From Escherichia phage vB_EfeM_pEP20: a DNA stretch of 64,000 nucleotides. The translations under genes and the position numbers were made by a program. This document shows, in pieces, positions 4,857 through 48,813 of this stretch. The stretch lies in the sequence record OQ743992; one strand, written 5' to 3'. The first letter of the stretch is position 1; each line of letters starts with the position of its first letter. A model generated the notes under the pieces. The model was not told the origin of the DNA, did not search any database, and was given only the letters and a program-made list of their open reading frames with translations.

Positions 4857-4875
4857 ATCTATCTGAAAACCAGTG

Positions 4876-10334: not shown

Positions 10335-10355
10335 AAAAAGGCTCCCGAAGGAGCC
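10335..10355 (-). terminator. Intrinsic terminator (GGCUCC-UUCG-GGAGCC then U5)
   Basis: Perfect 6-bp stem with tetraloop followed by a U run on minus-strand RNA. Confidence 0.55.
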
Positions 10356-10367
10356 TGTATCTTAACC

Positions 10368-13274: not shown

Positions 13275-13353
13275 CTTATTACTCTCTCTTGTTAGTTAAT
13301 AAATCATTTTGTAAGGCTATTCTAAGGGGCTTTGAAGCCCCTTGTCAAACACT

Positions 13354-16260: not shown

Positions 16261-16285
16261 AAAAGGCTCCCGTAGGAGCCTCTTA
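16261..16285 (-). terminator. Intrinsic terminator after the NAMPT-like gene (GGCUCC-UACG-GGAGCC then U5)
   Basis: Stem-loop plus U run on minus-strand RNA. Confidence 0.55.
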
Positions 16286-20174: not shown

Positions 20175-20176
20175 GA

Positions 20177-20443
20177 TTATTTAGCCTTCTTGTTACGTTT
20201 ACGGTTACGAGCTTTCTTAGCTGCTCGTTTAATAGCTGCTGCACCAGACTTGCGGTGGGCTTGTTTCTTACCACCTTTACCACGTCCAACGTAGATGTAA
20301 GGCTGCTGTTCAATTTGGCTTGTAAGAACCTGTGCAACCGCTGAAGCATCTACACCGACCTGCTTTCCAGCCATAGAAACAATTGCTGCTGCTTTTGCCA
20401 GCGCCTTCAAGAATCCAGCTTTCATATTACCTAAAATTCCCAT
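20177..20443 (-). CDS. Small protein with amphipathic N-terminus and very basic Lys/Arg-rich tail (88 aa)
   Basis: ...KRAAKKARNRKRNKKAK. Confidence 0.45.
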   Translation of the reverse strand: MGILGNMKAGFLKALAKAAAIVSMAGKQVGVDASAVAQVLTSQIEQQPYIYVGRGKGGKKQAHRKSGAAAIKRAAKKARNRKRNKKAK

Positions 20444-20458
20444 TTTTAGTCTCTCTCA

Positions 20459-20734
20459 TTATAGTTTAATACAGAACTTATGAAGTTCTTCTTCAGTGAT
20501 ACCAATTGGAGTGATACCTTCTCTGATGTTTTGAATCCTGTAGAAGTCTCCAAACTTATCTGATTCATGAATGTGAAAGGTAACGTTCTTCACCATCGTT
20601 GCAAGAGCACATAATGAATGTGCACCAAATTTTTCTCTCGTATAAATCATCCAAGCATCTAACTTGTTGATGTCGTAAGTCCACTTGCCAGAATAATCAC
20701 TCTGCTCGCCATTGACAATCACCTTGCCACCCAT
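20459..20734 (-). CDS. Hypothetical protein (91 aa) overlapping the nrdG 3' end
   Basis: Start moved to ATG with RBS GGAGAA 6 nt upstream; 38-nt overlap with nrdG. Confidence 0.4.
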   Translation of the reverse strand: MGGKVIVNGEQSDYSGKWTYDINKLDAWMIYTREKFGAHSLCALATMVKNVTFHIHESDKFGDFYRIQNIREGITPIGITEEELHKFCIKL

Positions 20735-21182
20735 ACTCTTTTCTCCATAGGTTTTGGTTATCAGAACCACGATACGGTTTAACTGTTGGTTTAGATGAAT
20801 CATACTTACCATCAATTACCACGTCAACATATTTCATCACATCTAGGTGAATTTTTTCGTGTAACTGGAATCCTGTCCAGAGCCAGATAGACTTCTCTGG
20901 GTAAACTGTTTTAATACGTTTGCATATGTTGGTAACCTCTTGAATATTTCTATCATCAAGAGGCTCTCCACCAAGTATTGACAACCCACTGATGGCCTCA
21001 TCATCCATTAATTTAATGATGCCGTAGAGGTTTGCATAAGTAAACTCTTTACCAGCATTAAACTTCCAAGACTCCCTGTTAAAGCAGCCTTCACAGTGAT
21101 GTTTGCAGCCAGCTACGAAGAGGCTTACACGAACCCCTTCACCATTAGCTGTGTCAAATGGTCTAATCTCCATGTAATTCAT
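20697..21182 (-). CDS. nrdG: Anaerobic ribonucleotide reductase activating protein (radical SAM)
   Basis: CKHHCEGC cluster (CxxxCxxC); C-terminus GSDNQNLW similar to NrdG; adjacent to nrdD. Confidence 0.75.
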   Translation of the reverse strand: MNYMEIRPFDTANGEGVRVSLFVAGCKHHCEGCFNRESWKFNAGKEFTYANLYGIIKLMDDEAISGLSILGGEPLDDRNIQEVTNICKRIKTVYPEKSIWLWTGFQLHEKIHLDVMKYVDVVIDGKYDSSKPTVKPYRGSDNQNLWRKEYGWQGDCQWRAE

Positions 21183-21217
21183 CTAGTTACCTCACCAATA
21201 TTATTTAAGCCTTTTAC

Positions 21218-21613
21218 TCATTCAAATACCACCTGACAAGGGACTTGTTTAGTAATAAATTCTTCACAGTGTTCTTTAATGAAGTTTTGTAATGGCACAC
21301 AGTCTTGTGCACACGTCATTAGCATAATGTACTCTGGATTCATAATATTTTCAATGGTGTAGAAGACAACATTGTCAAATAATTCATGACCGTCTTCTTC
21401 AGACCAAGTTCCAGTGACTATAGCTAATTTGTCAAGCAATTCATTAGGCAACGCTACACCATCTTCTACGGAATCACTTAGAACGTTGTCACCTATGTAC
21501 AATGTGAAGACCGTATGGAATGTTGAGTATCTTACGTGATTCTTTTCGCAAGAGCCACACTCTGAGGCGTAATCTTTAATCCACTCTAACTGTTTTTTGT
21601 TCAACTTAATCAT
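21218..21613 (-). CDS. Hypothetical protein (131 aa, Cys-containing)
   Basis: ORF. Confidence 0.45.
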   Translation of the reverse strand: MIKLNKKQLEWIKDYASECGSCEKNHVRYSTFHTVFTLYIGDNVLSDSVEDGVALPNELLDKLAIVTGTWSEEDGHELFDNVVFYTIENIMNPEYIMLMTCAQDCVPLQNFIKEHCEEFITKQVPCQVVFE

Positions 21614-21810
21614 AATTTCACCTTAGTTGGTAATGCACTGAATGCTATAGCTAACCCTAAAAATGGTTTGAAGCATGACCATAAATCCATCTGACCATGA
21701 TATGCGAAACTCCATTGTGGGTCTGAAAAACCCCATACCATAACACTAACTCCAAAAAAGAAGATTAGAATGTGAAGTATGTATATCAACGTTTTTGATA
21801 TTTTAAACAT
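21610..21810 (-). CDS. Small membrane protein (66 aa)
   Basis: Hydrophobic ILHILIFFFGVSVMVWGF. Confidence 0.35.
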   Translation of the reverse strand: MFKISKTLIYILHILIFFFGVSVMVWGFSDPQWSFAYHGQMDLWSCFKPFLGLAIAFSALPTKVKL

Positions 21811-21964
21811 TTTAACTTATCTCTCAACTCACAATAAGAGAGTCCTAAAAAGAACCCCAGTAAGACAGAACCTATGAACAGGCCAATGATGCTCTCTGCC
21901 ATATCTAACATCCAATAAAAAAGGTGATGTAAGCCTATCAAGACTCACACCACCTTGTCAAGTT

Positions 21965-24109
21965 TTACATAGAAACCCTGTCACGAATCTCAGCAATTTT
22001 TGCATCATTCATTCGGGATTCACCTTTAATCTTAGTCCACCCAAGATACCCACACACTCTGTTAATCACAGAGATGTCATGTGAATGACAAACCTCACAT
22101 TCTTCAACATCAGCCTTTGGTCTGTTGCCACAATGTTCGCAGATTGCTAAGTCAAAGTTAAGTCCCTGATAAAAGCCTTTCAACATCCCTCTTGTAATAC
22201 AACTTTTAAGTGCTGGTAAGTTTTCTGGGTTAGCTACCCTCACATACTGGATTCTGCCGCCTCTACAGATATGGAAGAATGGCTCTTCTAAGTCCTGCTT
22301 CTCAAATGGTGAGATATCTGCTGCAACATTCATATGGAAACTGTTTGTAAAATATTCCTTATCAGACACACCTTTGATAACGCCAAACATATCTCTGAAC
22401 TGTTTTAGTTGAGTTCCACAAAGTGATTCTGCTGGAGTACCATAGACGGCATATAAGAAGCCATCTTCATTTTTAAACTCTTCAGTTTTCATGTTAATAT
22501 ATGCCAGAACATCATATGCAAAACTATAGCTTCCAACTTCATGAAGTCGTTTACCCTCAGCAAGAACAGATAACTCATCAAGCGCAGTAACCCCAAAAGA
22601 AGCTGTGAAGGACTTCACGATATCCCAACCAACCTTGTCAGTAGGCTTCTTAGTCCCTTTGTACAGACCACCTTGTGTGAATGCAAGAGGGTTAGAACTT
22701 GCTGGCATATTAGCAATCATTTCGTAGCGTTTCTTGTGGAAGCTGCGAATCATCTCTAGGTACTTATCAAGCTCTTTCCAGAAATCTAAACCACTCTCTT
22801 TAGAATACTGGTAAATCATTGGTAAGTTCAAAGATACAGCACCAATGTTAGCACGACCAACGTAGAACTCTTCTCCATTCTCGTTAAGATATGGGGATAA
22901 GAAAGCTCTGCAACCCATCGGTGAAATTACCTTGCCAGAACGCTCAAAAGCCTCTGCTACAGCACCATGACCAGATACACTTAAGAAATCTGGATACATA
23001 GCTTTAGAGCAACACTCGATAGCTTTACTGTACAGTTGGCCTTGACAGATATTCTCATCGTGTCTCTTCTGGTCATGAATATAAACCAGTTTAGGGAATA
23101 CAACAGGCTTCTTACTCTTACCTTGTCCATTCATGCGAACATCAAGAATAGTGTTTGCAATCATGTATTGTAGTCGGTTGTCTTCATTAGACATGTCTGA
23201 GTCAAGCAAACCAAATGTTAAAGTTGTGAATGCGAAATCACCACGGCTACAAGGTACAGTATTTAGCTTCATCTCTAGTGACTGGAAGCCTTGAGTTAAT
23301 TCAATCTGTAGCTGCTCCATGACATAGTTATGGTAATGTTCTTTAGGAATACCGTAAGATGCTGCTTTCTCAGCATGATAGCGTAGAGACTTCTTAGCAT
23401 ACGGTACAAGCACCTTATCAATCTCTGCTAAAGTAAATCCACCAAATTGCTGTGCAGTTGCTGAAAGAACTACATCACCGATAACCTGTAAGGCTGACAG
23501 CACAGACTTTGGTTCACAGTATTCGATGCCAGACATTTCAAAGCCACCTTTCAGTACTTTACCAATGTCGAACAGGCAACAGTTAATACCACCAAAAATT
23601 AGGTCTCTTAAATCATGGATATAGATAAACCCTTTTTCAATGGCTTCAAGTTCCTCTGGTGTTAAATGGTACTGCTTAAAGATTTCTTTAGTCAGATAAC
23701 CACGAATAATTGAACCTTTTGTAGAAATTAAACTACTGTCAAAGTTAGCATTTTCACGGTCACCTAAGAAGAGTGTATCTCTAGTCTTTTGGTAAAGCTC
23801 ATCCCAATTTTGAGCAACCTCTTTACGGTAATTTCTATATGTTGAGTAAGACTCGTAAATCTCGTGGTTGACTTCTGCCAAAGCACCCTCAACAATACTG
23901 TGAATGTCATTTACCGAGATGAGCAAATTATTCTGCTTAGTGGACTTTACCAGAATCCTCATAAATGCTGACTCAAGAGCTTGGGTAACATCTGGTGGAA
24001 GTTCTTTATACCCAACCCTGTTAGCTGACTTAGTTACTGCTGCTAAAACTTTTTTGATATCAGGTTCTTCAAGTGAGCCATTCTTTTTAATAATCTGTAC
24101 TTTGTTCAT
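21965..24109 (-). CDS. nrdD: Anaerobic ribonucleoside-triphosphate reductase (class III, glycyl radical)
   Basis: C-terminal glycyl-radical motif RVCGYLG; zinc site CEHCG...CEVCHSHD; 714 aa. Confidence 0.85.
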   Translation of the reverse strand: MNKVQIIKKNGSLEEPDIKKVLAAVTKSANRVGYKELPPDVTQALESAFMRILVKSTKQNNLLISVNDIHSIVEGALAEVNHEIYESYSTYRNYRKEVAQNWDELYQKTRDTLFLGDRENANFDSSLISTKGSIIRGYLTKEIFKQYHLTPEELEAIEKGFIYIHDLRDLIFGGINCCLFDIGKVLKGGFEMSGIEYCEPKSVLSALQVIGDVVLSATAQQFGGFTLAEIDKVLVPYAKKSLRYHAEKAASYGIPKEHYHNYVMEQLQIELTQGFQSLEMKLNTVPCSRGDFAFTTLTFGLLDSDMSNEDNRLQYMIANTILDVRMNGQGKSKKPVVFPKLVYIHDQKRHDENICQGQLYSKAIECCSKAMYPDFLSVSGHGAVAEAFERSGKVISPMGCRAFLSPYLNENGEEFYVGRANIGAVSLNLPMIYQYSKESGLDFWKELDKYLEMIRSFHKKRYEMIANMPASSNPLAFTQGGLYKGTKKPTDKVGWDIVKSFTASFGVTALDELSVLAEGKRLHEVGSYSFAYDVLAYINMKTEEFKNEDGFLYAVYGTPAESLCGTQLKQFRDMFGVIKGVSDKEYFTNSFHMNVAADISPFEKQDLEEPFFHICRGGRIQYVRVANPENLPALKSCITRGMLKGFYQGLNFDLAICEHCGNRPKADVEECEVCHSHDISVINRVCGYLGWTKIKGESRMNDAKIAEIRDRVSM

Positions 24110-24127
24110 TATTGCCCCTTTACATGC

Positions 24128-24149
24128 TAAAAAGGTCTCCGAAGAGACC
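24128..24149 (-). terminator. Stem-loop plus U5 (GGUCUC-UUCG-GAGACC) between small membrane gene and nrdD
   Basis: Perfect hairpin followed by UUUUUAG on minus-strand RNA. Confidence 0.45.
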
Positions 24150-24157
24150 CTTTCATT

Positions 24158-24364
24158 TTAAATCTTTTTAGAAAACTTTGAAACGAGTTTTCTTAGTTTT
24201 TCAGTAATTCCTAGCTGTATCTCTAATATTTCAAAGATAACCCATAGTAACATGGCTCCAAACAATGAACCTTGTTCAAAATCAGTAAATAGGTTAACAA
24301 CAAGCATACCAATCACAATAGCTGGCGCATCAACAACCAAACCTTCCCAAAGGCGTTTAAGCAT
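24158..24364 (-). CDS. Small membrane protein (68 aa)
   Basis: Hydrophobic VVDAPAIVIGMLVVNLF. Confidence 0.35.
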   Translation of the reverse strand: MLKRLWEGLVVDAPAIVIGMLVVNLFTDFEQGSLFGAMLLWVIFEILEIQLGITEKLRKLVSKFSKKI

Positions 24365-24599
24365 TATTCACCTCTGCCATAAAATTCTGTAGTGTTCCAA
24401 CAGGTTTTAGATTTTGACCATCAGTTCTCATGATGAATGGCATCTGACGAACTGGCATCTGTGCAATATCCATCAGGTCTGATAACTCATAATCCTGCCC
24501 TAACATTCTCACAACATGGTTAATACCACGAGCCTTTGCAAAATTCTTTGCAGTCTCACACTGAGGGCATCCAGTTTTGGAGTAAATTACATAAGTCAT
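24357..24599 (-). CDS. nrdH: Glutaredoxin-like protein NrdH (80 aa)
   Basis: CPQC redox motif (YSKTGCPQCETAK); located between nrdB and nrdD. Confidence 0.65.
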   Translation of the reverse strand: MTYVIYSKTGCPQCETAKNFAKARGINHVVRMLGQDYELSDLMDIAQMPVRQMPFIMRTDGQNLKPVGTLQNFMAEVNNA

Positions 24600-25672
24600 T
24601 AAGGAACCTCTAAAAATCCACTATTCAAATCATCTACAACAGTATTCAATAAATACGCACCGTTCTGCTGCTCCTGATTAGCATTCTGCTCTTTATCAAT
24701 TTCCATCTTCTTAATCATATACTTCAAAGGTGGTTCTTTAGGAGCTACAAAATCTCTGGGAATGCCAAACATATCATACAGTGTGGCAGCATTATAGTAA
24801 ACCCACTCATGAAGAAGCTTTGTATTTAACCCAACTACAGCACGTCCTTCGGAGAAGATATAATACGACCATTTCTCTTCACTTTCAACTACTTCATCTA
24901 AGATTACTTTAATCTCTGGAAGAATTTGTTGGAAAGCTTTTTGCCACTCATCATCTCTTAAAGTTTCTTTTAAAACTTCAATATCAATTTTAGTGTGAAG
25001 GATTTCGTCAAGCATAATCTTCTGGACAGCTTGAGCAATACCTTGAAATTTATCTTGAGCATCAAGTGCAAAAGTACATGCAAAGGATGCCATAAAAGAA
25101 ATACCTTCAAGTGCAGTCACTGCAAATAGACCTTTTAGAATCACTTTATGGAAGTGCAAAGGGTCTTTATCCAGAAGTGAGTCACGGACATAACTCAGTC
25201 GATAGTTTATACCTTCATCCAGCAATTCTTCAAGAACACGATTCACAGTTTTTAATCGGTCTTGTACAGCAATGTTCTGGTTAATCTCATCTAAGATTGT
25301 TTCAGGATTTTTAATACACTGTCTTACAATCTCCGAGTAAGTAAGAGCATGTAGGTTTTCAATCTCAGACTGCTTCATAATTGCAGTTGCATAAATGTCA
25401 TCAGAGATGAATGGTGCAAAGGCAAACGCTAAGCTCTTAGCAACTTGGGTATCTGCTTCCCACTGCCACTTAAGAATCTCAAGCATTACACCTGACATTG
25501 ATGCTGGTACACTCTCAAAATCAAGACGTGATTGTTCAAAAGGGAACTCATCTTCTGACCAGTCTTGTGCTTTTTGTTGTTTATATAGCTCAAAGATTTT
25601 TGGGTAGTGCTTATTAAGTGAGTCGAATGTTTTTCTCTCACCACCTAAAAAGATTGGGTGTTGGTTAATCAT
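24599..25672 (-). CDS. nrdB: Ribonucleotide reductase class I small subunit
   Basis: Start moved to ATG (MINQHPIFLGG...); diiron-type helices; ATGA coupling with upstream gene; downstream of nrdA. Confidence 0.8.
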   Translation of the reverse strand: MINQHPIFLGGERKTFDSLNKHYPKIFELYKQQKAQDWSEDEFPFEQSRLDFESVPASMSGVMLEILKWQWEADTQVAKSLAFAFAPFISDDIYATAIMKQSEIENLHALTYSEIVRQCIKNPETILDEINQNIAVQDRLKTVNRVLEELLDEGINYRLSYVRDSLLDKDPLHFHKVILKGLFAVTALEGISFMASFACTFALDAQDKFQGIAQAVQKIMLDEILHTKIDIEVLKETLRDDEWQKAFQQILPEIKVILDEVVESEEKWSYYIFSEGRAVVGLNTKLLHEWVYYNAATLYDMFGIPRDFVAPKEPPLKYMIKKMEIDKEQNANQEQQNGAYLLNTVVDDLNSGFLEVP

Positions 25673-25926
25673 AGCGTGATTTCTCCTTTCTTTATCATCT
25701 CTAAGGCTTGTTTTCTGTCTAAAACTTCCCAATTTTCTTTGTTAAACATGTCATAAGGTCTTGCATAGATTTTACCATCTGCTGTAGAGATGTAAGAGAC
25801 ACCATCGACCCATGAGTCATCATTTTGTTTTATCATCACATCTGTGCTACTTACATAGTACAGTGTTTTCCGAGGTTTGTGGAGCAAGTATATGGGTCTC
25901 TCATGTTTTTCTATTAAGTCTTTCAT
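25669..25926 (-). CDS. Hypothetical protein (85 aa) between nrdA and nrdB
   Basis: Start moved to ATG (MKDLIEK...) after GGAGAA; stop overlaps nrdB start. Confidence 0.45.
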   Translation of the reverse strand: MKDLIEKHERPIYLLHKPRKTLYYVSSTDVMIKQNDDSWVDGVSYISTADGKIYARPYDMFNKENWEVLDRKQALEMIKKGEITL

Positions 25927-25981
25927 AGTTTCTCCAAAGTTAATTTTAGAGGGTCTTTTACGACCCTCATAGTTATTAAAA

Positions 25982-28216
25982 CTAAACACCACAACCCTCG
26001 CAATAAGCATCTTGCAGTGCAGATTTACCTACACCAATGCGACTGTTAAGGTAGTACATGGTTTTCATACCTACTGAGTTGGCATAAATCATGTACTTCA
26101 AAGCTTGAGCTAATGATACCTTCTTAGCTTTTGCGTAGTCAACATAGAAATCTGAAGAGATAGCTTGACCAGTGAACTTTTGAACAATTGCATAACAATC
26201 AATCAGGTCAAAGGTGTCAATATCCCAAGCAATTTCATAGACATACTTCAACTCTTCGTAATCTGGAACAATAAATAGTACGTTACCAGTTGCAGACTTT
26301 TTAGTTAAAATAAAGTCACGAATTGGATACAAGCCGTTTGTCGTATTAGTTGCCAGTGAAGAACTCTCATTAGGCATGTAAGCTTCTAATACAGAGTTAC
26401 GGATTCCACCATTTTCTTTAATACGTTGTGCTAAGTCATCCCAATCATAACGAAGTTTTGCATCATGCTTCTCATCAATCTTCCTGTTAGCTGTCTTCTG
26501 AGGAACCCAACCTTCAGGATACTTCGTGAACTGCATATACTCAGGTACACCACGCTCTTTAGCAAGTCTTAAAGAAGCTTCGTGTAAGTAGTAAGAGTGC
26601 ATTTCAGCAAGTTCATGAAGCTTCGTCTTACCTGCTCTTGAAGAATAGTTCACGTAGTTTTTTGCAAGGTAATGAGCCACATTTGTAAGGCCAATCCCAA
26701 CAGAGCGACGCTTCTGAACATGGTTGCGCATCGACGGATACGGATAATCCATAAGGTCAATAACGGAGTCAACCATTGCAAGAGCATAATAAGCAACGTC
26801 AGCGTATTCATCTTCTGAAATTCTCCCTGCAACCAAACTAGCTAGGAAGCAAAGAGCTACCTCACCATCCTCTTTCACAGCATCATCTCTGTAAAGGTCT
26901 GTCTCTTTCTCAAAGCCATACACTGGCAACACAATTTCCATACAAAGATTTGACATCTTCAAAGGCTCTTTGAATGGTGTATGTGTGTTTGCATTATTTG
27001 TGAAGAATGGATACACACGACCTGTTGCATAACGCTGCTGGATAAACAGTTTAGCAATTTCACGAGCCTTTACTCGTCTGTGCTTAACACCTGAATGTAC
27101 TGCGTGACCAACTGCCATAGCAAACTCATCAGCAGATGCTGTGTAGAACATGTCATAGAGTCTTGGTGCATCCTTGTAAGAGAATAGCAACCAGTCTGTA
27201 TCATATTGAACGCACTGCCAGAAATAATCATTTGTACCAAATGAGTAGTCCATCTCGTTAATACGTTTAGAAGGAACCGTTGTAGGGTGCTTCAAACGCA
27301 GTAAATCTTCAATCTGCGGGTCTAGAGCAGTGTAGAAGTTGTTAGCTGAACCACCACGGCTCTTCTGTTTGTTTGCCTCTACAGATGAACGTACAAGCTT
27401 GTAATAAGGCAGTTTACCCATATGCTCAATAGTATTTTGACGGATACCATCACCAATAGTGCGAGTCTCCATCAGCATTCCAATACCAGCTTGCTTTGTG
27501 GTCATGTCATAGGCAACCTTTGCGGCAATACCTAGAGATTCAGCAGTATCATTCGCTTTAATCAAACAGCATGACGCATAACCTGATTTAGTAGCTCTTA
27601 AACCATTCAGATAAGGCGTAGGAGCATTAATCTTCAGGTCAGATAGGTAAGTGTACAGCTTAATAACATCTTGTAGTCTACGGTGCTTTGGTTGCTTCTC
27701 AAAGGCTTTCATAGCCATACCCATAAACATAAACTGTGGTGACTCAAAAAGTCTTCCCGTTTTAATATCACGGATACCATACTTGTCTCTAAACTGTTTC
27801 AACACTGCATAGCCGTAAGATATATCTTTTGAGTGCACAATGTACCCTTGCAGATATTCAAGTTCTTCCTGAGAATAGTCCATCTTCTCCCAAAGTCCTG
27901 CTCTCTCCATATTTTTAACGAAGGTAACCAGCGTAGGAACCTTAGTAAAGCCTCCAAAGGCTTCTTTGTAGATAATACCCAGAAGTAGCCGTCCAGCCAT
28001 GTCTGAGTACTCTTGGGTTTGTTTATCAACACAAACATCAATCATGGCTTGGTGCATCTCTTTTGTAGTGCAACCCTCGTAGACACGCTTCATGGCTTCC
28101 ATAGTGACTTCTGACCAGATAATTCCACGCTTGTCTGCCCATGATGCCCACTTATTAAGTCTTTCTGGGTCAAAGCTTACTACTGTACCGTTTGATTTTT
28201 TAATTGTCTTAATCAT
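25982..28216 (-). CDS. nrdA: Ribonucleotide reductase class I large subunit
   Basis: 744 aa; N-terminal ATP-cone-like region; C-terminal CEGCGV redox pair; nrdA-nrdB synteny. Confidence 0.85.
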   Translation of the reverse strand: MIKTIKKSNGTVVSFDPERLNKWASWADKRGIIWSEVTMEAMKRVYEGCTTKEMHQAMIDVCVDKQTQEYSDMAGRLLLGIIYKEAFGGFTKVPTLVTFVKNMERAGLWEKMDYSQEELEYLQGYIVHSKDISYGYAVLKQFRDKYGIRDIKTGRLFESPQFMFMGMAMKAFEKQPKHRRLQDVIKLYTYLSDLKINAPTPYLNGLRATKSGYASCCLIKANDTAESLGIAAKVAYDMTTKQAGIGMLMETRTIGDGIRQNTIEHMGKLPYYKLVRSSVEANKQKSRGGSANNFYTALDPQIEDLLRLKHPTTVPSKRINEMDYSFGTNDYFWQCVQYDTDWLLFSYKDAPRLYDMFYTASADEFAMAVGHAVHSGVKHRRVKAREIAKLFIQQRYATGRVYPFFTNNANTHTPFKEPLKMSNLCMEIVLPVYGFEKETDLYRDDAVKEDGEVALCFLASLVAGRISEDEYADVAYYALAMVDSVIDLMDYPYPSMRNHVQKRRSVGIGLTNVAHYLAKNYVNYSSRAGKTKLHELAEMHSYYLHEASLRLAKERGVPEYMQFTKYPEGWVPQKTANRKIDEKHDAKLRYDWDDLAQRIKENGGIRNSVLEAYMPNESSSLATNTTNGLYPIRDFILTKKSATGNVLFIVPDYEELKYVYEIAWDIDTFDLIDCYAIVQKFTGQAISSDFYVDYAKAKKVSLAQALKYMIYANSVGMKTMYYLNSRIGVGKSALQDAYCEGCGV

Positions 28217-28235
28217 TTTTGAATCCTACAGGTGA

Positions 28236-28256
28236 AAAGAGCCTCCGAAGAGGCTC
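28236..28256 (-). promoter_or_regulatory. Stem-loop (GAGCCUC-UUCG-GAGGCUC) 20 nt upstream of the nrdA RBS; weak terminator or processing/stability element
   Basis: Perfect 7-bp stem followed by only U4. Confidence 0.4.
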
Positions 28257-28262
28257 CCTAGT

Positions 28263-28637
28263 TTAAATCTTGAAAATTTGCTCATTCTGCCACATATCGT
28301 AAAACTTATCACTTACTTTTGTGACTGAAGAAGTGTGCATACAATTCAGTAAGAACCATGAGGATGTATTATCCTCCATAAGTGTTTCAAGTTTTTGTGT
28401 GGCATTCACATCCATGTCTGAAACAACGTAATTACCTCGCATCTTGCAAACAATTCTTCCAAACAAGATTGCACTTCTACCTCTTCGGTCGTCACAGTAC
28501 ATAACTGTGTCTCCGTGCTTAACATCTTGTCCGATACTATCAACACCTAATTTAGCACCTGAGATAATGTCATCATAAGATAACTTTTTTTGCTTTAGAC
28601 ACGGTATTTCTCCAAGTTTCTTTTTAGATATAGCCAA
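28263..28637 (-). CDS. Hypothetical protein (124 aa)
   Basis: ORF. Confidence 0.4.
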   Translation of the reverse strand: MAISKKKLGEIPCLKQKKLSYDDIISGAKLGVDSIGQDVKHGDTVMYCDDRRGRSAILFGRIVCKMRGNYVVSDMDVNATQKLETLMEDNTSSWFLLNCMHTSSVTKVSDKFYDMWQNEQIFKI

Positions 28638-28927
28638 CCATAGTCAGTTCTTTCTACACCCATGAAGAGTGGAGCCATTACAACTTTACCAAAAGTATTC
28701 CTGTGTTGACAGATTTCAAAAGAATACTCTTTCTCAATATCAATCCCGTATTTGTATAGGACTGCTTTTAAAACTTGTTCATTATCCAGAAGTGTATCTG
28801 GAGTCTCACCATACTTCTCAAGTAACGGGTCATTCATAAACACCGTCATAGAGATATTGTAGTTTGAGAAGTGGCTCTTCTGAGCCACACCTTCTTTATT
28901 AATGTTCTGTGAATCCATTATAACCAA
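28595..28927 (-). CDS. Hypothetical protein (110 aa)
   Basis: ORF. Confidence 0.4.
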   Translation of the reverse strand: MVIMDSQNINKEGVAQKSHFSNYNISMTVFMNDPLLEKYGETPDTLLDNEQVLKAVLYKYGIDIEKEYSFEICQHRNTFGKVVMAPLFMGVERTDYGWLYLKRNLEKYRV

Positions 28928-29654
28928 CCCCTTTTAACCAGCACTTCAGGTTATTAGCATCATAATTCAGTTTCGGGTATGAGGTTACATGGAACTGCTC
29001 ACCATCATAGTAGACAATATCTGCAATCCATAGTCCGTTCTCTTTACAGAAATCTTTATCTGCTTTAGAGGTAATTGGATTAACTTCTACAAAACCATCT
29101 ACACCCAAATCCTTTAAGCTACATACAATACCTTTGCAGATAACGCATGTATCAGATACTACCACAAAAAGTTCTTGGCTTTCAAGTTCTACAATGTATT
29201 CACCAAGTTGAACTTTAGGGAGATTTGATTGCTTCATAATCTTCCCATCGGCTGCACGGGCAATCGCATACCACTCTTTACCATCAACTACTGACATTCT
29301 GATGATACACTCTTGACCAGTACGCTTCTCAATATCTGCAAGACGTTTTAAAGCTTCTTCATAGTCGTCTGTGTACTTCAGGTCATTATTATGGCAAACA
29401 GCTTCCATAGCACCATTGTGGTCATGTTGTGACAGATAAATTAGACCGTCAAGAACATATTGCAAATCTGCCTGAGCATCCAGTGTCTCAATGGGGTCTT
29501 TCTCTTCAATTGCTTTTACAAGCTCTTTTGCTTCTTCAAGCATACACAGAGACTGGGATTTCAAAGATTCCCAATACTCATCACTGTAAGGTTGCTTTTG
29601 GGTGTTTCCGCAACGAAGATTCCAGTTTTTTACTGATTCTCTTGAGTTAAACAT
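28899..29654 (-). CDS. Hypothetical protein (251 aa)
   Basis: ORF; no confident motif. Confidence 0.4.
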   Translation of the reverse strand: MFNSRESVKNWNLRCGNTQKQPYSDEYWESLKSQSLCMLEEAKELVKAIEEKDPIETLDAQADLQYVLDGLIYLSQHDHNGAMEAVCHNNDLKYTDDYEEALKRLADIEKRTGQECIIRMSVVDGKEWYAIARAADGKIMKQSNLPKVQLGEYIVELESQELFVVVSDTCVICKGIVCSLKDLGVDGFVEVNPITSKADKDFCKENGLWIADIVYYDGEQFHVTSYPKLNYDANNLKCWLKGVGYNGFTEH

Positions 29655-29892
29655 TCGGACTCCTTAAAAATCTATTAACTTTTAGCTCTCGTGTTTCAAT
29701 ATATTCCAGATGCTCACGTAACTCTTGACGTTTAAGCATTAGGTGCTGCATTTGAGATTCAACAGCTTCAACTTCTTTAATTATTGACTCTCTGGCATTT
29801 GCAAGAATGCGCTCAAGTTCTTCAATCTTGCTGTCAACCTTTGCTACATGGCTCACAGCTTTACTTTTGTTAAACATTTTATTCTCTCTCAA
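29647..29892 (-). CDS. Small coiled-coil protein (81 aa)
   Basis: ORF; charged heptad-like sequence. Confidence 0.4.
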   Translation of the reverse strand: MRENKMFNKSKAVSHVAKVDSKIEELERILANARESIIKEVEAVESQMQHLMLKRQELREHLEYIETRELKVNRFLRSPNV

Positions 29893-29898
29893 TAGTTA

Positions 29899-30396
29899 TC
29901 AAGCACAGTTTGATTTCATTACCTTATGGATTCTTTTTTCAGCATCTTCATAAGTTTCTTTAGTAATAAACTTAATTGCTGCAATATTGGCATTGTAGAA
30001 GAGTCTGAGCTTAGAGTCAATCCTTTTTGTCATGACATCGAATTTATGTTGAAGGTTTGCTTCGCCATAAACTAGACCACCTTTCGTGTAGTAGGTTTGG
30101 ATAATGTAAAAGTCAAAAAATTCTTTTCCAAAGCTCTCAATATCCTTTTTAATATACTCAGAAGAAGTCTCATAAGTCATCCAATCACTCTCCTTAGTGA
30201 CTACCTTCTTCCGAGTCTTACCAGCAACTTTTCTTTTGGTCACACTATTAAGCTGTTTCTTTCCGATATAATATTGTCCGGTTTTCTTACAGTGTACTAA
30301 ATAGACAAAGCCAAAATGTTTAGTGGGGTCAACTTCCCCACATAAAGATACCCAATGACCATAGGTAGGACAATTGCCAAATCCTTTAATCTTCAT
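29899..30396 (-). CDS. Putative GIY-YIG-type homing endonuclease-like protein (165 aa)
   Basis: FGFVYLVHCKKTGQYYIGKK resembles the GIY-x10-YIG motif. Confidence 0.4.
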   Translation of the reverse strand: MKIKGFGNCPTYGHWVSLCGEVDPTKHFGFVYLVHCKKTGQYYIGKKQLNSVTKRKVAGKTRKKVVTKESDWMTYETSSEYIKKDIESFGKEFFDFYIIQTYYTKGGLVYGEANLQHKFDVMTKRIDSKLRLFYNANIAAIKFITKETYEDAEKRIHKVMKSNCA

Positions 30397-31426
30397 TCAT
30401 ACACGGCTCCCAATTATATTTCTTAAAAGAGAAATTATCTTTTGGATTTCTCTCTTGATATGCTATCCAGAAATGCTGCTCCATTAACTCTAATGGTGTC
30501 TTTGTGATAGTCTGTCCATCCCATGATACATAGGTGTATGACTCTTTTTTAGCATAGAGTTCATAGATAGCATCAAGGCACTCTTTATAGGTCTCTTTAC
30601 CATCTAAAGCATTCATCACAGCTACTTTACCAGCACCTTTAAGGCCGAAGTAGTTATCTGCATTATCCCCAGCAACAGCCTGATAACACAAGAATTTAAA
30701 ACCTACACCAACTGTTTTTGCAGCTTTTGGTTTTGATTTGATAGGACAATCCCAGATATCTCCAACATTATTGTCAGCAATAAAAATTAGTGGTGACTTC
30801 TCATAGGTCATATCAATACAATAAGTCCCTTCAGCTTGTCGAAGGTCTTTGTCAATACTCATAAGAGCAGCCTTCTTACCCATCTTTTCAGCTTTAGCAA
30901 TTACGATGGAGTCGGCTTCGAAGCCTCCCTTTAAGAGCTTGAACTCTGGTCTTGACAGAAGATATTCACGACAAGCAACTAAGTGTGTTGGTGTGACAGC
31001 ATCTTTACGGTTACCTTGATATTGGTGCTCAAGACCTTTCACGTCTTTATGTTTATGTACACCTTTCTCTGTTAAGTAACCTACCCAAGTTCTTTCTTTA
31101 CCAACAACCTTAAGCCATTCCTGAAGAACCTGCTGAGTAGCCATGATAGCTTCTTTTTCACTCTTAGCTTCTTTCCAAGTCTGTCTTTCCCATTCATCTT
31201 CATCAAATGCTAGGCCAAGCTCTTCTACAAGGATTCTCTGGTCTGCTAACCATCTTGCAGCATCTTTTGCATTATCAAATGGTTCAGATTCTTCTGCTGT
31301 GAGTTTATTGACATATTTATATTTTGCTTTCTCAACTACACAAGCACCTTTATAGGCAATACTATCAGAGTCAATAAAGACATGTGTAACTGAATCGGGA
31401 AGTTTTGTTAGCGTATACTTCTCCAT
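30386..31426 (-). CDS. 5'-3' exonuclease / flap endonuclease (T4 RNase H-like)
   Basis: VFIDSDSIAYKG (compare T4 ICLIDFSQIA), GFEADSIVIA (EADD-type motif), SIDKD. Confidence 0.6.
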   Translation of the reverse strand: MEKYTLTKLPDSVTHVFIDSDSIAYKGACVVEKAKYKYVNKLTAEESEPFDNAKDAARWLADQRILVEELGLAFDEDEWERQTWKEAKSEKEAIMATQQVLQEWLKVVGKERTWVGYLTEKGVHKHKDVKGLEHQYQGNRKDAVTPTHLVACREYLLSRPEFKLLKGGFEADSIVIAKAEKMGKKAALMSIDKDLRQAEGTYCIDMTYEKSPLIFIADNNVGDIWDCPIKSKPKAAKTVGVGFKFLCYQAVAGDNADNYFGLKGAGKVAVMNALDGKETYKECLDAIYELYAKKESYTYVSWDGQTITKTPLELMEQHFWIAYQERNPKDNFSFKKYNWEPCMNED

Positions 31427-31488
31427 TGTGACTCTCCATATGAAAAAGCCCCATACTAAGTACAGGGCTTTAAAGTAACTTTTAGAGA

Positions 31489-32346
31489 TTAGTCTTCTGT
31501 ATCGAAGTCTTCATCTCCTTCGTCATCTGGGTCTGGCAAGTCTTCGTCGTCACCATCATCAGAATCATTCGAAGGTTTGTGGTCTTTTGCGTCTTCTTCA
31601 GTGATTTCACCGTTATCTTCAACACCATCAAGACCAAGCATAGCCAGTTCGTCTTCATCCAGTTCAGGTTCGCCATTAGCACCGTTACCACCAGTGTAAG
31701 GTACAAGGGTATCAATGATAAACTGTTCCTGAATAGGTTTTGTCAGAACATTGTTCTCAAAGGTGTAGAAGTGAGTAGAAAGAATCACACTACCAAAAGA
31801 ACCATTACCAACTGCAATATCTGGATGAATTACATCATAGTTCTTGTCATCTTCATGCTTATCAGATGCTTGAGCTTTGATTTTCTTCATCGGCTGTTTA
31901 ACAGCTACACGCTTACCATTTACTTCTTCAATCAGCATTACAGGGAATGACTGTTTAGCTGTCCACACAGCACCATCTTTATAAGCTGCTGCACGACTTA
32001 CTTTCAAGATGTAGTAAGTGTCTGCTTCAAAAGGTGGTTTGCAACCAAACTTCTCTTCGAAGTCATCTGCATCAACTGCTTCAGTAGTAACTTTATCCCA
32101 ACCTTCTGGGTTTTTCTTAGACTTAGTGAACTCTTTAAACAGCTTGTTACCATCTTCTGCCAGAATTGAAACACTATAGTTGCAGTCTTTTCCTGGGAAT
32201 TTCTTATCAATGGATTTACCTTTTCCCGGACGTGGTGAAGTGTTCAGGTAATAAAACCAAACATCTTTCAGCAGGTAACGCAGAGTTTGACGTTCAGTAC
32301 CATTGTACTTCTCTACCGGAGCTTTCATTTTAACAACTTTAGACAT
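31489..32346 (-). CDS. Putative ssDNA-binding protein (T7 gp2.5-like architecture: globular domain plus acidic C-terminal tail)
   Basis: C-terminal DDGDDEDLPDPDDEGDEDFDTED; located between primase-helicase and FEN. Confidence 0.45.
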   Translation of the reverse strand: MSKVVKMKAPVEKYNGTERQTLRYLLKDVWFYYLNTSPRPGKGKSIDKKFPGKDCNYSVSILAEDGNKLFKEFTKSKKNPEGWDKVTTEAVDADDFEEKFGCKPPFEADTYYILKVSRAAAYKDGAVWTAKQSFPVMLIEEVNGKRVAVKQPMKKIKAQASDKHEDDKNYDVIHPDIAVGNGSFGSVILSTHFYTFENNVLTKPIQEQFIIDTLVPYTGGNGANGEPELDEDELAMLGLDGVEDNGEITEEDAKDHKPSNDSDDGDDEDLPDPDDEGDEDFDTED

Positions 32347-32418
32347 TATTTAAACCTCTATCTCAATTTATGAAGAGTACCAATTCTAATTTGTTGATAC
32401 TCTATTGTCAAACATTAA

Positions 32419-32568
32419 TTACTGGAAGTTGTGCTTATCTTTAGAAGCTGCTTTACGTGCAGTTTTTCCAGTTCTTACACGCTTCTCTTCATAGTATTTT
32501 GCTGGTTTTCCAGCAGTGGCTTTTAAGGAATCCCCAAAAACTTTTTCAAATGCTTTAGAGTGTTTCAT
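32419..32568 (-). CDS. Small basic protein (49 aa), absent from the ORF track
   Basis: Hand translation MKHSKAFEKVFGDSLKATAGKPAKYYEEKRVRTGKTARKAASKDKHNFQ; RBS GGAGAA; ATGA overlap with upstream stop. Confidence 0.3.
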   Translation of the reverse strand: MKHSKAFEKVFGDSLKATAGKPAKYYEEKRVRTGKTARKAASKDKHNFQ

Positions 32569-32846
32569 GATATTCTCCGATATACTTGATATTCAAACAC
32601 ATTTTCTTTAATTATAAACAGCCAACCAATATTATGTCGAGGTATAGTAATAGTGACTGTTATTATACTGTGATGGAACTTTTCTTCTACCTCAACGCCT
32701 CCATCACATTTCATGTAGAGCATTCTATAGAACCTATCAACCTTTGTCAAACACTCTTCCTGAAATTCATTTAAACTTTTTTCTTCAAAGAAGGGTATGA
32801 ACCCCTCTCTTTTATAACTATCACTCAGTTTCGAATGGGCAGTCAT
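32565..32846 (-). CDS. Hypothetical protein (about 93 aa)
   Basis: Start moved to ATG (MTAHSK...) 6 nt after GAGG; overlaps primase-helicase 3' end. Confidence 0.35.
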   Translation of the reverse strand: MTAHSKLSDSYKREGFIPFFEEKSLNEFQEECLTKVDRFYRMLYMKCDGGVEVEEKFHHSIITVTITIPRHNIGWLFIIKENVFEYQVYRRIS

Positions 32847-34806
32847 CTGCATCCTCACTTAATACAGGTGGAATCGTTGAGCTTTGACGCTGCTCTTCAG
32901 TATAAACTTCACCAGTCTCACGGTCAAACACTTCATCCTCGTAATGAGGTAAGGAGTCATCATAATGGTCTTCAGCTTCACCAATACCAAACTGTTGACG
33001 AATATTCTCTGCTGCACCATCAATGTCAACACCACACCCAGAAGCTTTGATAAGACGTCCTGTGTCTGGATTGTACCAAGTATGACCAGCGATACCTGTT
33101 GACTTACCATGACGACGACACTTAGTTAACTTGATTTTTGTCAAGTTTTTCTTAACAGGGTCTGGGTCAACCTTGTTACGCATTAACAGAATGTTGTTCA
33201 TGGAAATCTGGAAGTATGCACCAGAACCCTTAATGTCCTCTTCAGAGATATCTCCACCTTCAGAGTTAGCTTTCTGACCACCTGCACTCTTACGAACGTG
33301 ACAGACGTTAACCTGTGCATACTGATAGCGTTTGCAACGACGCAGTAGTTCAGACAAAACTTCCTCTTCATCAGTATCAGAACGTGACAGAGCCAACGTA
33401 ATAGGGTCAAGAATAATAATCTTACAGTCTAAACTGTTAACAAGATAGTCAACAAATTCCAGCAGGTTATCTTGGTCAATTGCCCCTTGATGGTCAACGA
33501 TATGGATACGACGGCCTTTAGATAGTTCTGCGTGTGCTTCCTTCAATTCATCCCAATCACGTTCGTCATAAGGAATCTCAGAAATCTGCTTGCTTAGGTG
33601 AATTGCACAGAGCATCTCCATCAACTCTTCATAGGTGTCTTCTACAGGAATTACACCGATATTGTAATCAGTTTCTTTCCAAGCTGAATAAATCATCTCA
33701 CGAGTGTAAGCTGACTTACCTACTGAAGATGGTGCTGCAATAGTTGTAATCTCACCTAAACCATAACCACCATAAGTCAGCCTGTTCAAATCCCCGAAAG
33801 ATTCTGGGAAAGGAATCAATGGAATCTGACCACGATTCTTCATTGCCTCAAAACCATCTGCAAAGTTCTTGATACCAGCAGGACAGTAACGAGGTGCATT
33901 GTAGATACGCTGCTTAAATCCTTCCAGAACTGTGTCTTTCTCTTTATAGAACTTTGTCCACCATTCATTAAGGTCTTTTACACCTTCTGGATACTGGAAC
34001 AAACGAACCTTCTCAATAGGTAAGATGCCAGCAGCCTCTTTTGTTGCTTTAGCACCTGCTTCATCGTTATCAAAGCACAAGTAAATCTCATCAAATGATG
34101 TGATGTACTGATAGTTGTCTTTGATAGACTTAATGTTTGCACCTGATGGAACAGATACGTGACAGTAATTCTTACGACGAGACTTATCTTTAATTGCCAG
34201 AGAAGTCATGTAGATAGCTGTCGCACATTCCATCTCACCTTCCCAGATGAATAGTCGGTTCCCACCTTCTGGAGCAATCCATGAACCGAACATTGCCAGT
34301 TCACCTTTAATATCTCCAACACCACCTGAAAAGTCTTTTAACTTACCACGTAGGTGTTCTTTTGGATGGTCTTCTGGGTAACGGTGACGAACACGGTAAC
34401 CAACATGTTCTAGCTTGCCATCTTCATTACGTTTGTAAGTCGGATAGAAATGTGCATCAATTTCACCGTCACTATCAATGTCAACCTTAATACCTAAACG
34501 CTCAAGGACTTTTGCAGGAATCTTCCTGTCTTTCAAATCCATTGCTTCTAGGTTTTCTTTTACATCATCTAAATCCATTCCACGGAAAGTACGGTTTTTA
34601 TTATCTGAACCAGTAGAATAAGTGCTCACGATTTGTCCTTTATCAAAATCCCACTCTGGGAAACCTTTGTTACAGCTAAAGCAAGTCATCGAATAAGAAC
34701 CATCGTCATGATGGTAGATTGAACCCGCATCTGATGAACCACAACGTGGACATGCACAATGACCAATAAACTGACCAGCCTCTTTCAATTTACGACCTTT
34801 AGACAT
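32821..34806 (-). CDS. DNA primase-helicase (T7 gp4-like: zinc ribbon, primase/TOPRIM region, DnaB-type helicase)
   Basis: CACPRCGSSD...CFSC zinc finger; Walker A GEITTIAAPSSVGKS; start moved to ATG (MSKGRK...). Confidence 0.75.
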   Translation of the reverse strand: MSKGRKLKEAGQFIGHCACPRCGSSDAGSIYHHDDGSYSMTCFSCNKGFPEWDFDKGQIVSTYSTGSDNKNRTFRGMDLDDVKENLEAMDLKDRKIPAKVLERLGIKVDIDSDGEIDAHFYPTYKRNEDGKLEHVGYRVRHRYPEDHPKEHLRGKLKDFSGGVGDIKGELAMFGSWIAPEGGNRLFIWEGEMECATAIYMTSLAIKDKSRRKNYCHVSVPSGANIKSIKDNYQYITSFDEIYLCFDNDEAGAKATKEAAGILPIEKVRLFQYPEGVKDLNEWWTKFYKEKDTVLEGFKQRIYNAPRYCPAGIKNFADGFEAMKNRGQIPLIPFPESFGDLNRLTYGGYGLGEITTIAAPSSVGKSAYTREMIYSAWKETDYNIGVIPVEDTYEELMEMLCAIHLSKQISEIPYDERDWDELKEAHAELSKGRRIHIVDHQGAIDQDNLLEFVDYLVNSLDCKIIILDPITLALSRSDTDEEEVLSELLRRCKRYQYAQVNVCHVRKSAGGQKANSEGGDISEEDIKGSGAYFQISMNNILLMRNKVDPDPVKKNLTKIKLTKCRRHGKSTGIAGHTWYNPDTGRLIKASGCGVDIDGAAENIRQQFGIGEAEDHYDDSLPHYEDEVFDRETGEVYTEEQRQSSTIPPVLSEDADDCPFETE

Positions 34807-44908: not shown

Positions 44909-44931
44909 AGCCTCTTCGGAGGCTCCTTTTT
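44909..44931 (+). terminator. Intrinsic terminator (AGCCUC-UUCG-GAGGCU then U5)
   Basis: Hairpin plus U run immediately after the 44457-44897 stop. Confidence 0.55.
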
Positions 44932-48806: not shown

Positions 48807-48813
48807 TTAAACT

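Follow-up and report, generated by a model that had tools for sequence, protein, structure and literature searches.

The ribonucleotide reductase locus and its hairpins

The window analysed here is a 64,000-nt stretch of the genome of Escherichia phage vB_EfeM_pEP20 (OQ743992), a Felixounavirus, that is, a Felix O1-like myovirus. Phages of this group are in therapeutic use and carry many terminators. Felix O1 has no gene for an RNA polymerase (PMC3185647), and a Felix O1-like phage would be transcribed by the host enzyme. The ribonucleotide reductase genes lie on the minus strand. The large subunit of the class Ia enzyme is encoded by nrdA (25982..28216, minus strand; Pfam Ribonuc_red_lgC, E = 7e-91), which starts at ATG 28216-28214 behind an AGGA Shine-Dalgarno sequence at 28227-28224. 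The interval between nrdA and nrdB holds a small ORF of 85 aa (orf85; 25669..25926, minus strand) that has no Pfam match; it starts at ATG 25926-25924 behind a GGAG Shine-Dalgarno sequence at 25935-25932, and its stop codon overlaps the nrdB start (ATGA). A long hairpin 3' of nrdD (21921..21956, minus strand; 16 pairs, dG -23 kcal/mol), followed by UUUUAUU, is likely the end of the transcription unit.

Two short hairpins flank nrdA, and both are present on the minus strand as perfect 7-bp stems, as a sequence-only reading of the window had proposed. Hairpin A, after nrdA, is GAGGGUC-GUAAAA-GACCCUC (25949..25968), with a 6-nt loop, five G-C pairs among the seven and a dG of about -12.6 kcal/mol. 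It lies 13 nt from the nrdA stop codon, 13 nt from the GGAG and 22 nt from ATG 25926. Hairpin B, before nrdA, has the core GAGCCUC-UUCG-GAGGCUC (28239-28256, minus strand), which can be extended to 10 pairs by two G.U pairs and an A-U pair (28236..28259); the hairpin reads GGAGCCUC-UUCG-GAGGCUCU-UUUC. It lies 6 nt from the upstream stop codon, 11 nt from the AGGA and 22 nt from the nrdA ATG at 28216. The distance of about 20 nt given in the sequence-only reading therefore applies to the start codons (22 nt in both cases), but not to the ribosome-binding sites (13 nt for A, 11 nt for B). The description of both hairpins as lacking U-tracts fits A, whose tail is UAAAAUUAAC (also given as UAAAAUUAACUUU) with two U among the first six, but not B, where a run of four U (28235..28238) directly follows the 7-bp stem.

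A genome-wide set of intercistronic hairpins

Hairpins A and B belong to a set of short GC-rich RNA stem-loops that is spread over the whole genome. The layout of the set is stop codon, hairpin, ribosome-binding site and start codon, within gaps of 45-55 nt between co-directional genes; the recurrence of a hairpin ahead of a ribosome-binding site is real and extends beyond this locus. The perfect stems begin 6-14 nt past the stop codon and finish 17-24 nt before the start codon, with one exception (13324-13343). By a heuristic gene model that takes the longest ORFs, the 8.4% of the DNA that is non-coding holds 8 of the 9 hairpins with stems of at least 7 bp (P about 2e-8) and 12 of the 15 GC-rich perfect hairpins with stems of at least 6 bp (P about 4e-11); the raw count of 9 is only about twice the expectation from shuffled sequence (4.1 +/- 2.1).

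Several members of the set have been catalogued in Felix O1. The hairpin GGUCUC-UUCG-GAGACC followed by U5, in the gap between a 68-aa ORF and nrdD (24134..24149, minus strand), is Felix O1 t116 and is annotated as a terminator in phages wV8 and Mordin. AGGCUCC-UUCG-GGAGCCU followed by UUUUCAUUUC (10339..10356, minus strand) is t5-like, and AGGCUCC-UACG-GGAGCCU followed by UUUUAAUUU (16264..16281, minus strand) belongs to the same family. Altogether, the window hairpins at 24134, 10339, 19820 and 48785 match t116, t5, t124 and t79/80, respectively. The core of hairpin B recurs on the plus strand at 44909..44924 (AGCCUC-UUCG-GAGGCU, then CCUUUUU), within a block of plus-strand genes and so again in the sense orientation. 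One further candidate, at 28871-28888, was set aside: it lies in coding sequence and is explained by a conserved peptide, VA.KSHFS.

All six hairpins of the C(UNCG)G type with stems of at least 5 bp are in the sense orientation relative to the local genes. This strand bias, together with G.U pairs that are usable only in the transcript, points to selection on RNA. Hyperstable C(UUCG)G hairpins were, according to a passage in PMC4371310, first found in T4 mRNA (Tuerk et al., 1988). Hairpin B and five others in the window share with these a UUCG or UACG loop closed by a C-G pair, whereas hairpin A, with its GUAAAA loop, does not belong to this class. A search of Rfam gave no match in the whole window at the gathering score, and none at E <= 1 within 25850-28350.

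Hairpin B has the features of an intrinsic terminator

With its GC-rich stem, 4-nt loop and U tract (UUUU), hairpin B has the make-up of an intrinsic terminator, contrary to the suggestion of the sequence-only reading that the hairpins serve some role other than termination. It is identical, letter for letter, to Felix O1 t111 (gagcctcttcggaggctctttt; Table 2 of PMC3185647), and it is annotated as a terminator in phage Mordin. The Felix O1 table, in which hairpin A is absent, is a TransTerm prediction made without transcript mapping (Whichard et al., 2010; PMC3185647). A search of the literature for transcriptome, Term-seq or transcript-end data on Felixounavirus found nothing useful. The calculated terminator index of hairpin B ranges from +6 to +35 over all lineages, comparable to t5, t116 and t124, and that of hairpin A is -35. 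Our built-in terminator scan, which asks for at least five T in eight, did not call hairpin B on the minus strand and called hairpin A solely on the non-transcribed strand.

Comparison among relatives shows which parts of hairpin B are kept. Five stem versions occur at the site (GAGCCUC, GGGUCUC, GGCAUC, GCUGCC and GGGACUC), and the UNCG loop and a run of U4-U6 are retained with all five; the exception is two relatives that have UUCUC in place of the U run. Over 12 variants, six of the seven pairs have changed on both sides and 100% of the cells remain paired, a level of covariation matched by none of 500 shuffles. The local fold itself is no better than that of shuffled sequence (z = -0.6). 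The stem in class-2 relatives includes the t116 sequence, and the covariation may in part reflect the exchange of entire terminator modules and not compensation step by step. Among the loci compared was a metagenomic one, L050, to which no phage record was closer than 70% nucleotide identity.

A precedent for a weak terminator in this part of a phage genome comes from T4. In mobE, just 3' of nrdA, T4 has an intrinsic terminator with a 9-bp stem, a 4-nt loop and a short poly(U), which terminates 30-50% of transcripts and is conserved with substitutions that keep the structure (Wilson and Edgell, 2009; PMC2790892). What the two share is a short poly(U) behind a short hairpin, in the nrdA-to-nrdB interval of a phage. 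The T4 terminator, however, sits 27 nt inside a homing-endonuclease gene, and it has no sequence relationship to the hairpins of the window.

Hairpin A is conserved in sequence but lacks a U-tract

Hairpin A has the stem and loop size of an intrinsic terminator but not the U-rich tract. It is not annotated. All 14 of its stem bases are unchanged in about 45 relatives, and the third-codon identity of nrdA to these phages is 0.56-0.69; its conservation is far above that of neutral sites. The hairpin is present in one copy per genome in 248 phage records. Taken alone, its local fold gives weak evidence (z = -2.4). The 13-nt spacer between the nrdA stop codon and the hairpin, UUUUAAUAACUAU (25969..25981, minus strand), has four polymorphic sites in relatives, at gap positions 4, 7, 10 and 13.

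Across related phages, four different hairpins occupy the site, and the main form shows no covariation. The three alternatives, each in another lineage, are GGGGCU-GAAA-AGCCCC followed by U4 (in L016, L017 and L052), GGUGGC-UGCAAG-GCCACC followed by UUCU, and GGGUCGG-UUAAGU-CCGACCC followed by AAC and U6. The GGGUC...GACCC core of hairpin A is also found in the distant Kolesnikvirus. A long-range helix enclosing hairpin A, with GAGGGUUGUGG pairing with CCACAAACCUC (z = -3.4), was considered and rejected; it is absent in L004, L005 and the class-2 relatives, and translation would melt the pairing.

Candidate promoters

No promoter was found by scanning between either hairpin and the next gene, and the 22 nt available are too short for one. 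A match seen by eye across hairpin A, TTGCGA-N17-TTTAAT, was rejected; its -10 hexamer does not have A as the second base, and its final T varies between T and C among relatives. A better candidate, TTGACT-N18-TATCAT (10 of 12 matches), lies within the 3' part of nrdA (26113..26142, minus strand). The two hexamers are unchanged in every Felixounavirus, Mooglevirus and L047 relative, although the spacer between them varies, and transcription from this site could run through hairpin A into the orf85-nrdB block. If this site is real, hairpin A also lies in a 5' leader, and a role at the 3' end would not be its sole job. The arrangement would differ from that in T4, where the nrdB promoter follows the terminator; here the candidate precedes hairpin A. 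NrdR boxes are AT-rich palindromes, unlike the GC-rich stems of A and B.

Proposed functions

Hairpins A and B are real, conserved and ordinary. With moderate confidence, we favour a reading in which B is an intrinsic terminator that is leaky and probably gated by translation, and A is a hairpin that protects a 3' end or causes pausing. Hairpin B would be a Rho-independent terminator that combines a C(UUCG)G hairpin with a short tail of four U. Since the 22 nt before nrdA leave no room for a promoter, it would have to be leaky, and it would most likely attenuate transcription into nrdA and protect the 3' end of the upstream mRNAs. Only 6 nt separate it from the preceding stop codon, and its 5' arm should therefore be covered by a ribosome that completes the upstream ORF; termination would then occur mainly on untranslated transcripts. 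The λ terminator tR2 is almost fully repressed when a stop codon lies a few bp ahead of it (Li et al., 2016; PMC4824070), and the range of strong repression in that series, a synthetic reporter with one terminator, covers the 6-14 nt that separate the window hairpins from their stop codons; similar repression may apply here. Hairpin A has a geometry like that of B, but with no U-tract efficient release of the polymerase is not expected; it would most likely be a barrier to 3'-to-5' exonucleases or a pause hairpin, and as such would decouple the fate of the nrdA message from that of the orf85-nrdB-grx block. The mRNA-stability role raised in the sequence-only reading is thus retained as the leading idea for the hairpin without a U-tract. 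What the sequences show is the existence, strand, placement and conservation of the hairpins, together with the covariation of B and its identity with a published predicted terminator; termination, leakiness and gating at B, like the stabilising or pausing role of A, are what we infer.

A rather unlikely alternative is that both hairpins act only after transcription, as 3' exonuclease barriers or, once RNase E has cut in their AU-rich flanks, as stabilisers of the 5' end, with polymerase released at neither. The flanks are indeed AU-rich and single-stranded, a good U run is missing from A and from some relatives of B, and the genes beyond every hairpin still need to be expressed; how transcription passes the many terminators was left unexplained by the Felix O1 authors (PMC3185647). 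However, a pure exonuclease barrier would need no U run, and U4-U6 has been kept over five unrelated stems at site B.

The constancy of the stem of A in the same phages in which that of B varies hints at a sequence-specific constraint beyond structure. Hairpin A might then be an operator, through which a phage or host protein or RNA controls orf85-nrdB translation or read-through, and its single copy and the core shared with Kolesnikvirus would agree with this. We nevertheless consider an operator improbable: generic hairpins take its place in three lineages with the same neighbouring genes, and neither a candidate binding protein nor an Rfam match was found.

The conservation of hairpin A would be explained differently if it were coding. 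In many GenBank/RefSeq records the small ORF starts at a GTG at 25989, where it overlaps the 3' end of nrdA, and the hairpin is wrongly buried in the extended ORF. No stop codon interrupts this frame across the gap in any relative that has the hairpin A sequence of the window, a 3-nt deletion in L047 preserves the frame, and all four sites that vary ahead of the hairpin fall at its third codon positions, a period-3 pattern that by our own count has a chance probability of about 0.07. The homologues from L016, L017 and L052, however, have a stop codon in that frame and lack a start further upstream, and their translation must therefore begin at the ATG after the Shine-Dalgarno sequence; the GGAG and this start codon are kept in all relatives, even where the upstream extension is impossible. 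The small protein is also highly divergent between lineages while the gap DNA is nearly identical, and changes 3' of the hairpin are non-synonymous in that frame. We give a coding origin of the conservation very little weight. Fusion of nrdA to the small ORF by a +1 frameshift was rejected as well: the +1 frame is open, yet the extension fails in the same three homologues, the protein diverges strongly where the gap does not, and GUU-UAG is, by our reasoning, a poor shift site. Placement of hairpin A in a coding sequence, by either route, is unlikely.

It is highly doubtful that the hairpins act at the DNA level, as conserved junctions for homologous recombination of gene modules. Locally, the most divergent genes are the small ORF that follows A and the ORF that precedes B, similarity breaks exactly at the hairpins, and hairpins appear to have been exchanged (t116 in the class-2 stem of B, and GGGGCU with U4 replacing A). 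Such a role proposed for the PeSL cassettes of T4, repeated units of an early promoter and a stem-loop, offers a precedent (PMC4122927), these being likewise conserved intergenic stem-loops at the boundaries of variable genes (PMC2839356, PMC4122927); A and B differ from them in not being repeated cassettes and in having no promoter hexamers in either gap. The sense-strand orientation of all six UNCG loops and the G.U pairs that form only in the transcript argue against a DNA-level function, and recombination could be a by-product. Features of the PeSL type are found instead in the early-region cassettes at 1300-7010.

Processing by RNase III, which the sequence-only reading had suggested by analogy with T7 early mRNAs, has next to nothing in its favour here. 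In T7 an internal loop or bulge directs single-strand cleavage at such sites. Two helical turns are the usual length of substrates of the E. coli enzyme; the minimal one, uR1.1, has 34 nt, and reactivity falls strongly when it is shortened further (PMC1540722). On this reading, cleavage of A and B by the host enzyme would yield stable monocistronic messages. Like T7 sites such as R1.1, A and B are intercistronic and ahead of ribosome-binding sites, and A lacks a U-tract. But they are hairpins of 18-24 nt whose perfect stems have 7 bp in A and, wobbles included, no more than 10 in B, as against about two turns with an internal loop in T7; 201-nt folds around each showed neither coaxial extension to that length nor a longer enclosing helix, and B bears a full terminator signature. 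Neither hairpin looks like an RNase III site, and processing is not supported.

Implications for Felix O1-like phages

Hairpin B had already been published as a predicted terminator, whereas hairpin A, strongly conserved in about 250 Felix O1-like genomes, had gone unannotated. Stop codons and hairpins are uniformly spaced, 6-14 nt apart, which leads to a testable idea, that masking by the ribosome permits read-through by the host polymerase. A bolder reading, to which we assign a low probability, is that hairpin A controls the nrdA:nrdB ratio in a sequence-specific manner and that the hairpin set as a whole is a translation-gated termination system; A would then be, for instance, an operator bound by a protein or a signal dedicated to pausing or anti-termination. 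If the set is translation-gated, the ribosome on each cistron would license transcription into the next, and this would answer the question, left open in the Felix O1 study (PMC3185647), of how transcription passes through so many terminators.

Stem-loops flanking nrdA

A 4.5-kb query around the nrdA hairpins matches 259 phage records (best identity 97.9%), nearly all of them Felixounavirus, the Felix O1-like myoviruses of Escherichia, Salmonella and Shigella. The minus strand carries the genes from 1 to ~37 kb of the window (38.8% G+C), and along the operon, with genes assigned by Pfam, the order on that strand is hairpin B (28239-28256), nrdA (25982-28216), hairpin A (25949-25968), an 85-aa ORF (orf85, 25669-25926), nrdB (24599-25672), glutaredoxin, a 68-aa ORF, a UUCG hairpin (24134-24149), nrdD (21965-24109) and a long hairpin followed by UUUUAUU (21921-21956). 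Genes of the orf85-nrdB-grx-orf68 block overlap, for example through ATGA, and the operon hairpins are confined to places with an intergenic gap.

On the transcript strand, both stem-loops lie where the sequence-only reading had placed them. Hairpin A, GAGGGUC-GUAAAA-GACCCUC (25968 to 25949), is 13 nt from the nrdA TAG, 13 nt from the following GGAG and 22 nt from the ATG. Hairpin B, GAGCCUC-UUCG-GAGGCUC (28256 to 28239), is 6 nt from the upstream TAA, 11 nt from AGGA and 22 nt from the nrdA ATG. Both had been described as lacking U-tracts, which is true of hairpin A (tail UAAAAUUAAC) and not of hairpin B (tail UUUUCACC), where pairing with an upstream AGG can extend the stem to 10 pairs (two G.U and one A-U).

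Hairpins across the window

Local folding alone (z = -2.4 for hairpin A, -0.6 for B) makes a weak case that the two exceed chance, and perfect GC-rich hairpins of at least 7 bp number 9 against 4.1 +/- 2.1 in dinucleotide shuffles (~2x). Their placement is decisive: 8 of the 9 (P ~2e-8), and 12 of the 15 of at least 6 bp (P ~4e-11), lie within the 8.4% of sequence that a longest-ORF gene model of the window leaves non-coding. Spacing from the stop codon to the perfect stem is uniformly 6-14 nt, and from stem end to the next start codon 17-24 nt, the exception being an intercistronic hairpin at 13324-13343 (-), AAGGGGCU-UCAA-AGCCCCUU followed by AGAAUAG, which is ~49 nt ahead of its start codon and, like hairpin A, has no U-tract. 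The same absence marks an intercistronic hairpin of -19 kcal/mol at 49380-49458 (-). A descriptive count, made without shuffle control, finds hairpins at least as stable as -9 kcal/mol in 28 of the 34 same-strand gaps that measure 20-170 nt. All six C(UNCG)G hairpins with stems of at least 5 bp carry UNCG in the sense orientation relative to the local genes; one such hairpin, at 44909, lies among plus-strand genes. Since UNCG is always on the sense strand and the G.U pairs are possible in the transcript only, the selected object is RNA rather than a DNA palindrome. One further perfect hairpin, GUGGCUC-AGAA-GAGCCAC at 28871-28888 (-), lies 10 nt past the stop of a MazG-like gene within the opening codons of the ORF that follows; relatives retain part of it, a retention explained by the conserved peptide encoded there, and we rejected it as a conserved RNA element.

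Hairpin B is a predicted terminator

Both stem-loops had been proposed to act in RNase III-type processing, mRNA stability or translation coupling rather than termination. By its sequence, hairpin B is an already published predicted terminator, listed for Felix O1 as 't111 gagcctcttcggaggctctttt, -16.1 kcal/mol' among 17 Rho-independent terminators from TransTerm (PMC3185647, Table 2), and phage Mordin has a 'terminator' annotated at the same place. Window hairpins at 24134, 10339, 19820 and 48785 match t116, t5, t124 and t79/80 of that table, and a t116 equivalent is annotated in phage wV8. The hairpin at 48785-48808, AAGGCUCC-N8-GGAGCCUU, lies between convergent genes and is flanked by A12 and, on the opposite side, by T12; on this sequence it is the predicted bidirectional terminator t79/t80.

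In phiEa104 and 45 related loci drawn from viral and metagenomic collections, five stems occupy the site upstream of nrdA (GAGCCUC, GGGUCUC, GGCAUC, GCUGCC and GGGACUC), each looped by UUCG or UACG and followed by U4-U6; two relatives have UUCUC instead of UUUU. All cells pair in the alignment of 12 variants, both sides change in 6 of 7 pairs, and neither shuffling nor sliding the register gives anything near the observed value. Because the t116 sequence is contained in the class-2 stem, module swapping may account for some of this covariation. The phiEa104 copy is ~110 nt, not 22 nt, upstream of nrdA. A terminator index from the d'Aubenton-Carafa formula is +6 to +35 for hairpin B in every lineage, +2 to +61 for the other catalogued terminators and -35 for hairpin A.

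RNase III-type processing, the earlier proposal, fails on length. Escherichia coli RNase III substrates typically span two helical turns, and shortening the minimal 34-nt hairpin uR1.1 further strongly lowers reactivity (PMC1540722); hairpins A and B have 7-10 pairs with no internal loop, and 201-nt folds contain no long enclosing helix around either. Only the early-region 'type A' two-tier cassettes (~19 pairs) are long enough. Two repeated intergenic cassette types lie between small early ORFs at 1331-7009 (-), with gaps ending at 7009, 6539, 6193, 5590, 4329 and 3538, and at 4875, 3839, 2585 and 1399. The type A upper stem covaries between copies (GGGGCUUAA/UUAAGCCCC versus GGGGCUAUC/GAUAGCCCC) and the cassette overlaps promoter-like hexamers, TTTACA-N17-TAnnnT; type B is GGGGAGGG-AAUGA-CCUUCCCC without a U-tract. 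These cassettes resemble the T4 PeSL promoter/stem-loop cassettes.

Hairpin A is conserved and probably non-coding

Hairpin A is the best-conserved local non-coding DNA: its stem is identical at 14 of 14 bases in every relative with this form, including lineages in which nrdA matches the window at 0.65-0.69 of third codon positions (0.56 in locus L047), and 28-30 of the first 30 nt of the nrdA-orf85 gap are conserved. It is absent from the Felix O1 terminator table (PMC3185647), and none of 40 sampled records gives it a regulatory annotation. Other lineages have different hairpins at the same spot: GGGGCU-GAAA-AGCCCC then UUUU (L016, L017, L052), GGUGGC-UGCAAG-GCCACC then UUCU (L050), and, with nrdB directly next, GGGUCGG-UUAAGU-CCGACCC then AAC and U6 (Kolesnikvirus phiEa104 and SB18). 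A hairpin right after nrdA is thus a constant of the subfamily, with the U-tract optional.

RefSeq and GenBank records give different starts for the small ORF that follows nrdA (25927-25989; also L001 7170-7490 and L036 3111-3449). About half of the sampled records start it at a GTG overlapping the nrdA end, as do RefSeq (BPS17W1) and Mordin, which puts hairpin A in coding sequence. That frame is open in all relatives with the window's form of the hairpin, four variable sites upstream of the hairpin are at its third codon positions, and L047 has an in-frame 3-nt deletion. Such a reading is nevertheless unlikely, because the homologues in L016, L017 and L052, which carry an in-frame stop and lack an upstream start, must begin at an ATG after a Shine-Dalgarno sequence; from that ATG all homologues read M-(K/L/I)-(D/E)-(L/R)-I, and whereas the gap DNA is nearly identical between lineages, the protein has diverged strongly. 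We conclude from these comparisons that hairpin A is non-coding, the start being mis-assigned in many records, and favour a start at ATG 25926. In wV8 (L014/L035, NC_012749, 75784-78332) nrdA is annotated as truncated, ending ~60 nt early, and the next ORF covers the nrdA tail and hairpin A; judged against all other relatives, this suggests a frameshift or an error in sequencing. The 201-nt fold around hairpin A at 25860-26060 (-) is unusually stable (z = -3.4) owing to long-range pairing of GAGGGUUGUGG (nrdA end) with CCACAAACCUC (small-ORF codons 14-18), which is not conserved in several close relatives.

Transcription past the hairpins

Felix O1 depends on the host polymerase, and its authors left unexplained how transcription passes many terminators (PMC3185647). 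The interval from hairpin B to nrdA has no room for a promoter, and strong consensus matches lie no nearer than 32.4-32.9 kb, so hairpin B would have to be leaky. Within 20000-34000, the 11 sigma-70-like matches that score 10 of 12 or higher all lie on the minus strand, the transcribed one, and three at 11 of 12 cluster at 32383-32750, upstream of a 285-aa ORF; the total is no higher than in shuffles. Inside nrdA, ~130 nt before the stop, TTGACT-N18-TATCAT (26113-26142, -) is promoter-like and may drive the orf85-nrdB block from within nrdA; T4 likewise has an internal promoter for nrdB. Both hexamers stay unchanged throughout the Felixounavirus, Mooglevirus and L047 relatives, the spacer differing at 10 of 18 bases in L047; the element is not conserved in Kolesnikvirus.

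In T4, 30-50% of transcripts end at a weak intrinsic terminator that has a short poly(U) and lies immediately downstream of nrdA (PMC2790892). The terminator tR2, when it follows a stop codon by a few bp, is repressed almost completely, recovering only beyond ~30 bp (PMC4824070). The 6-14-nt spacing of the window hairpins falls in that repressed range. On these precedents, hairpin B and its U-tract siblings would be leaky, translation-gated terminators that also cap the upstream mRNAs. Hairpin A would not terminate efficiently, and would instead act as a barrier to 3' exonucleases or make a pause more stable shortly ahead of the next RBS. We regard translation-gated termination at B and an exonuclease barrier or pausing at A as most likely; the strict sequence conservation of A lies outside this reading and leaves room for a sequence-specific partner.

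Hairpin B is thus already known, as a prediction, and hairpin A is a new, unannotated example of the intercistronic mRNA stem-loop, which is a familiar kind of element. The stop-hairpin-RBS layout is ordinary phage operon compaction.
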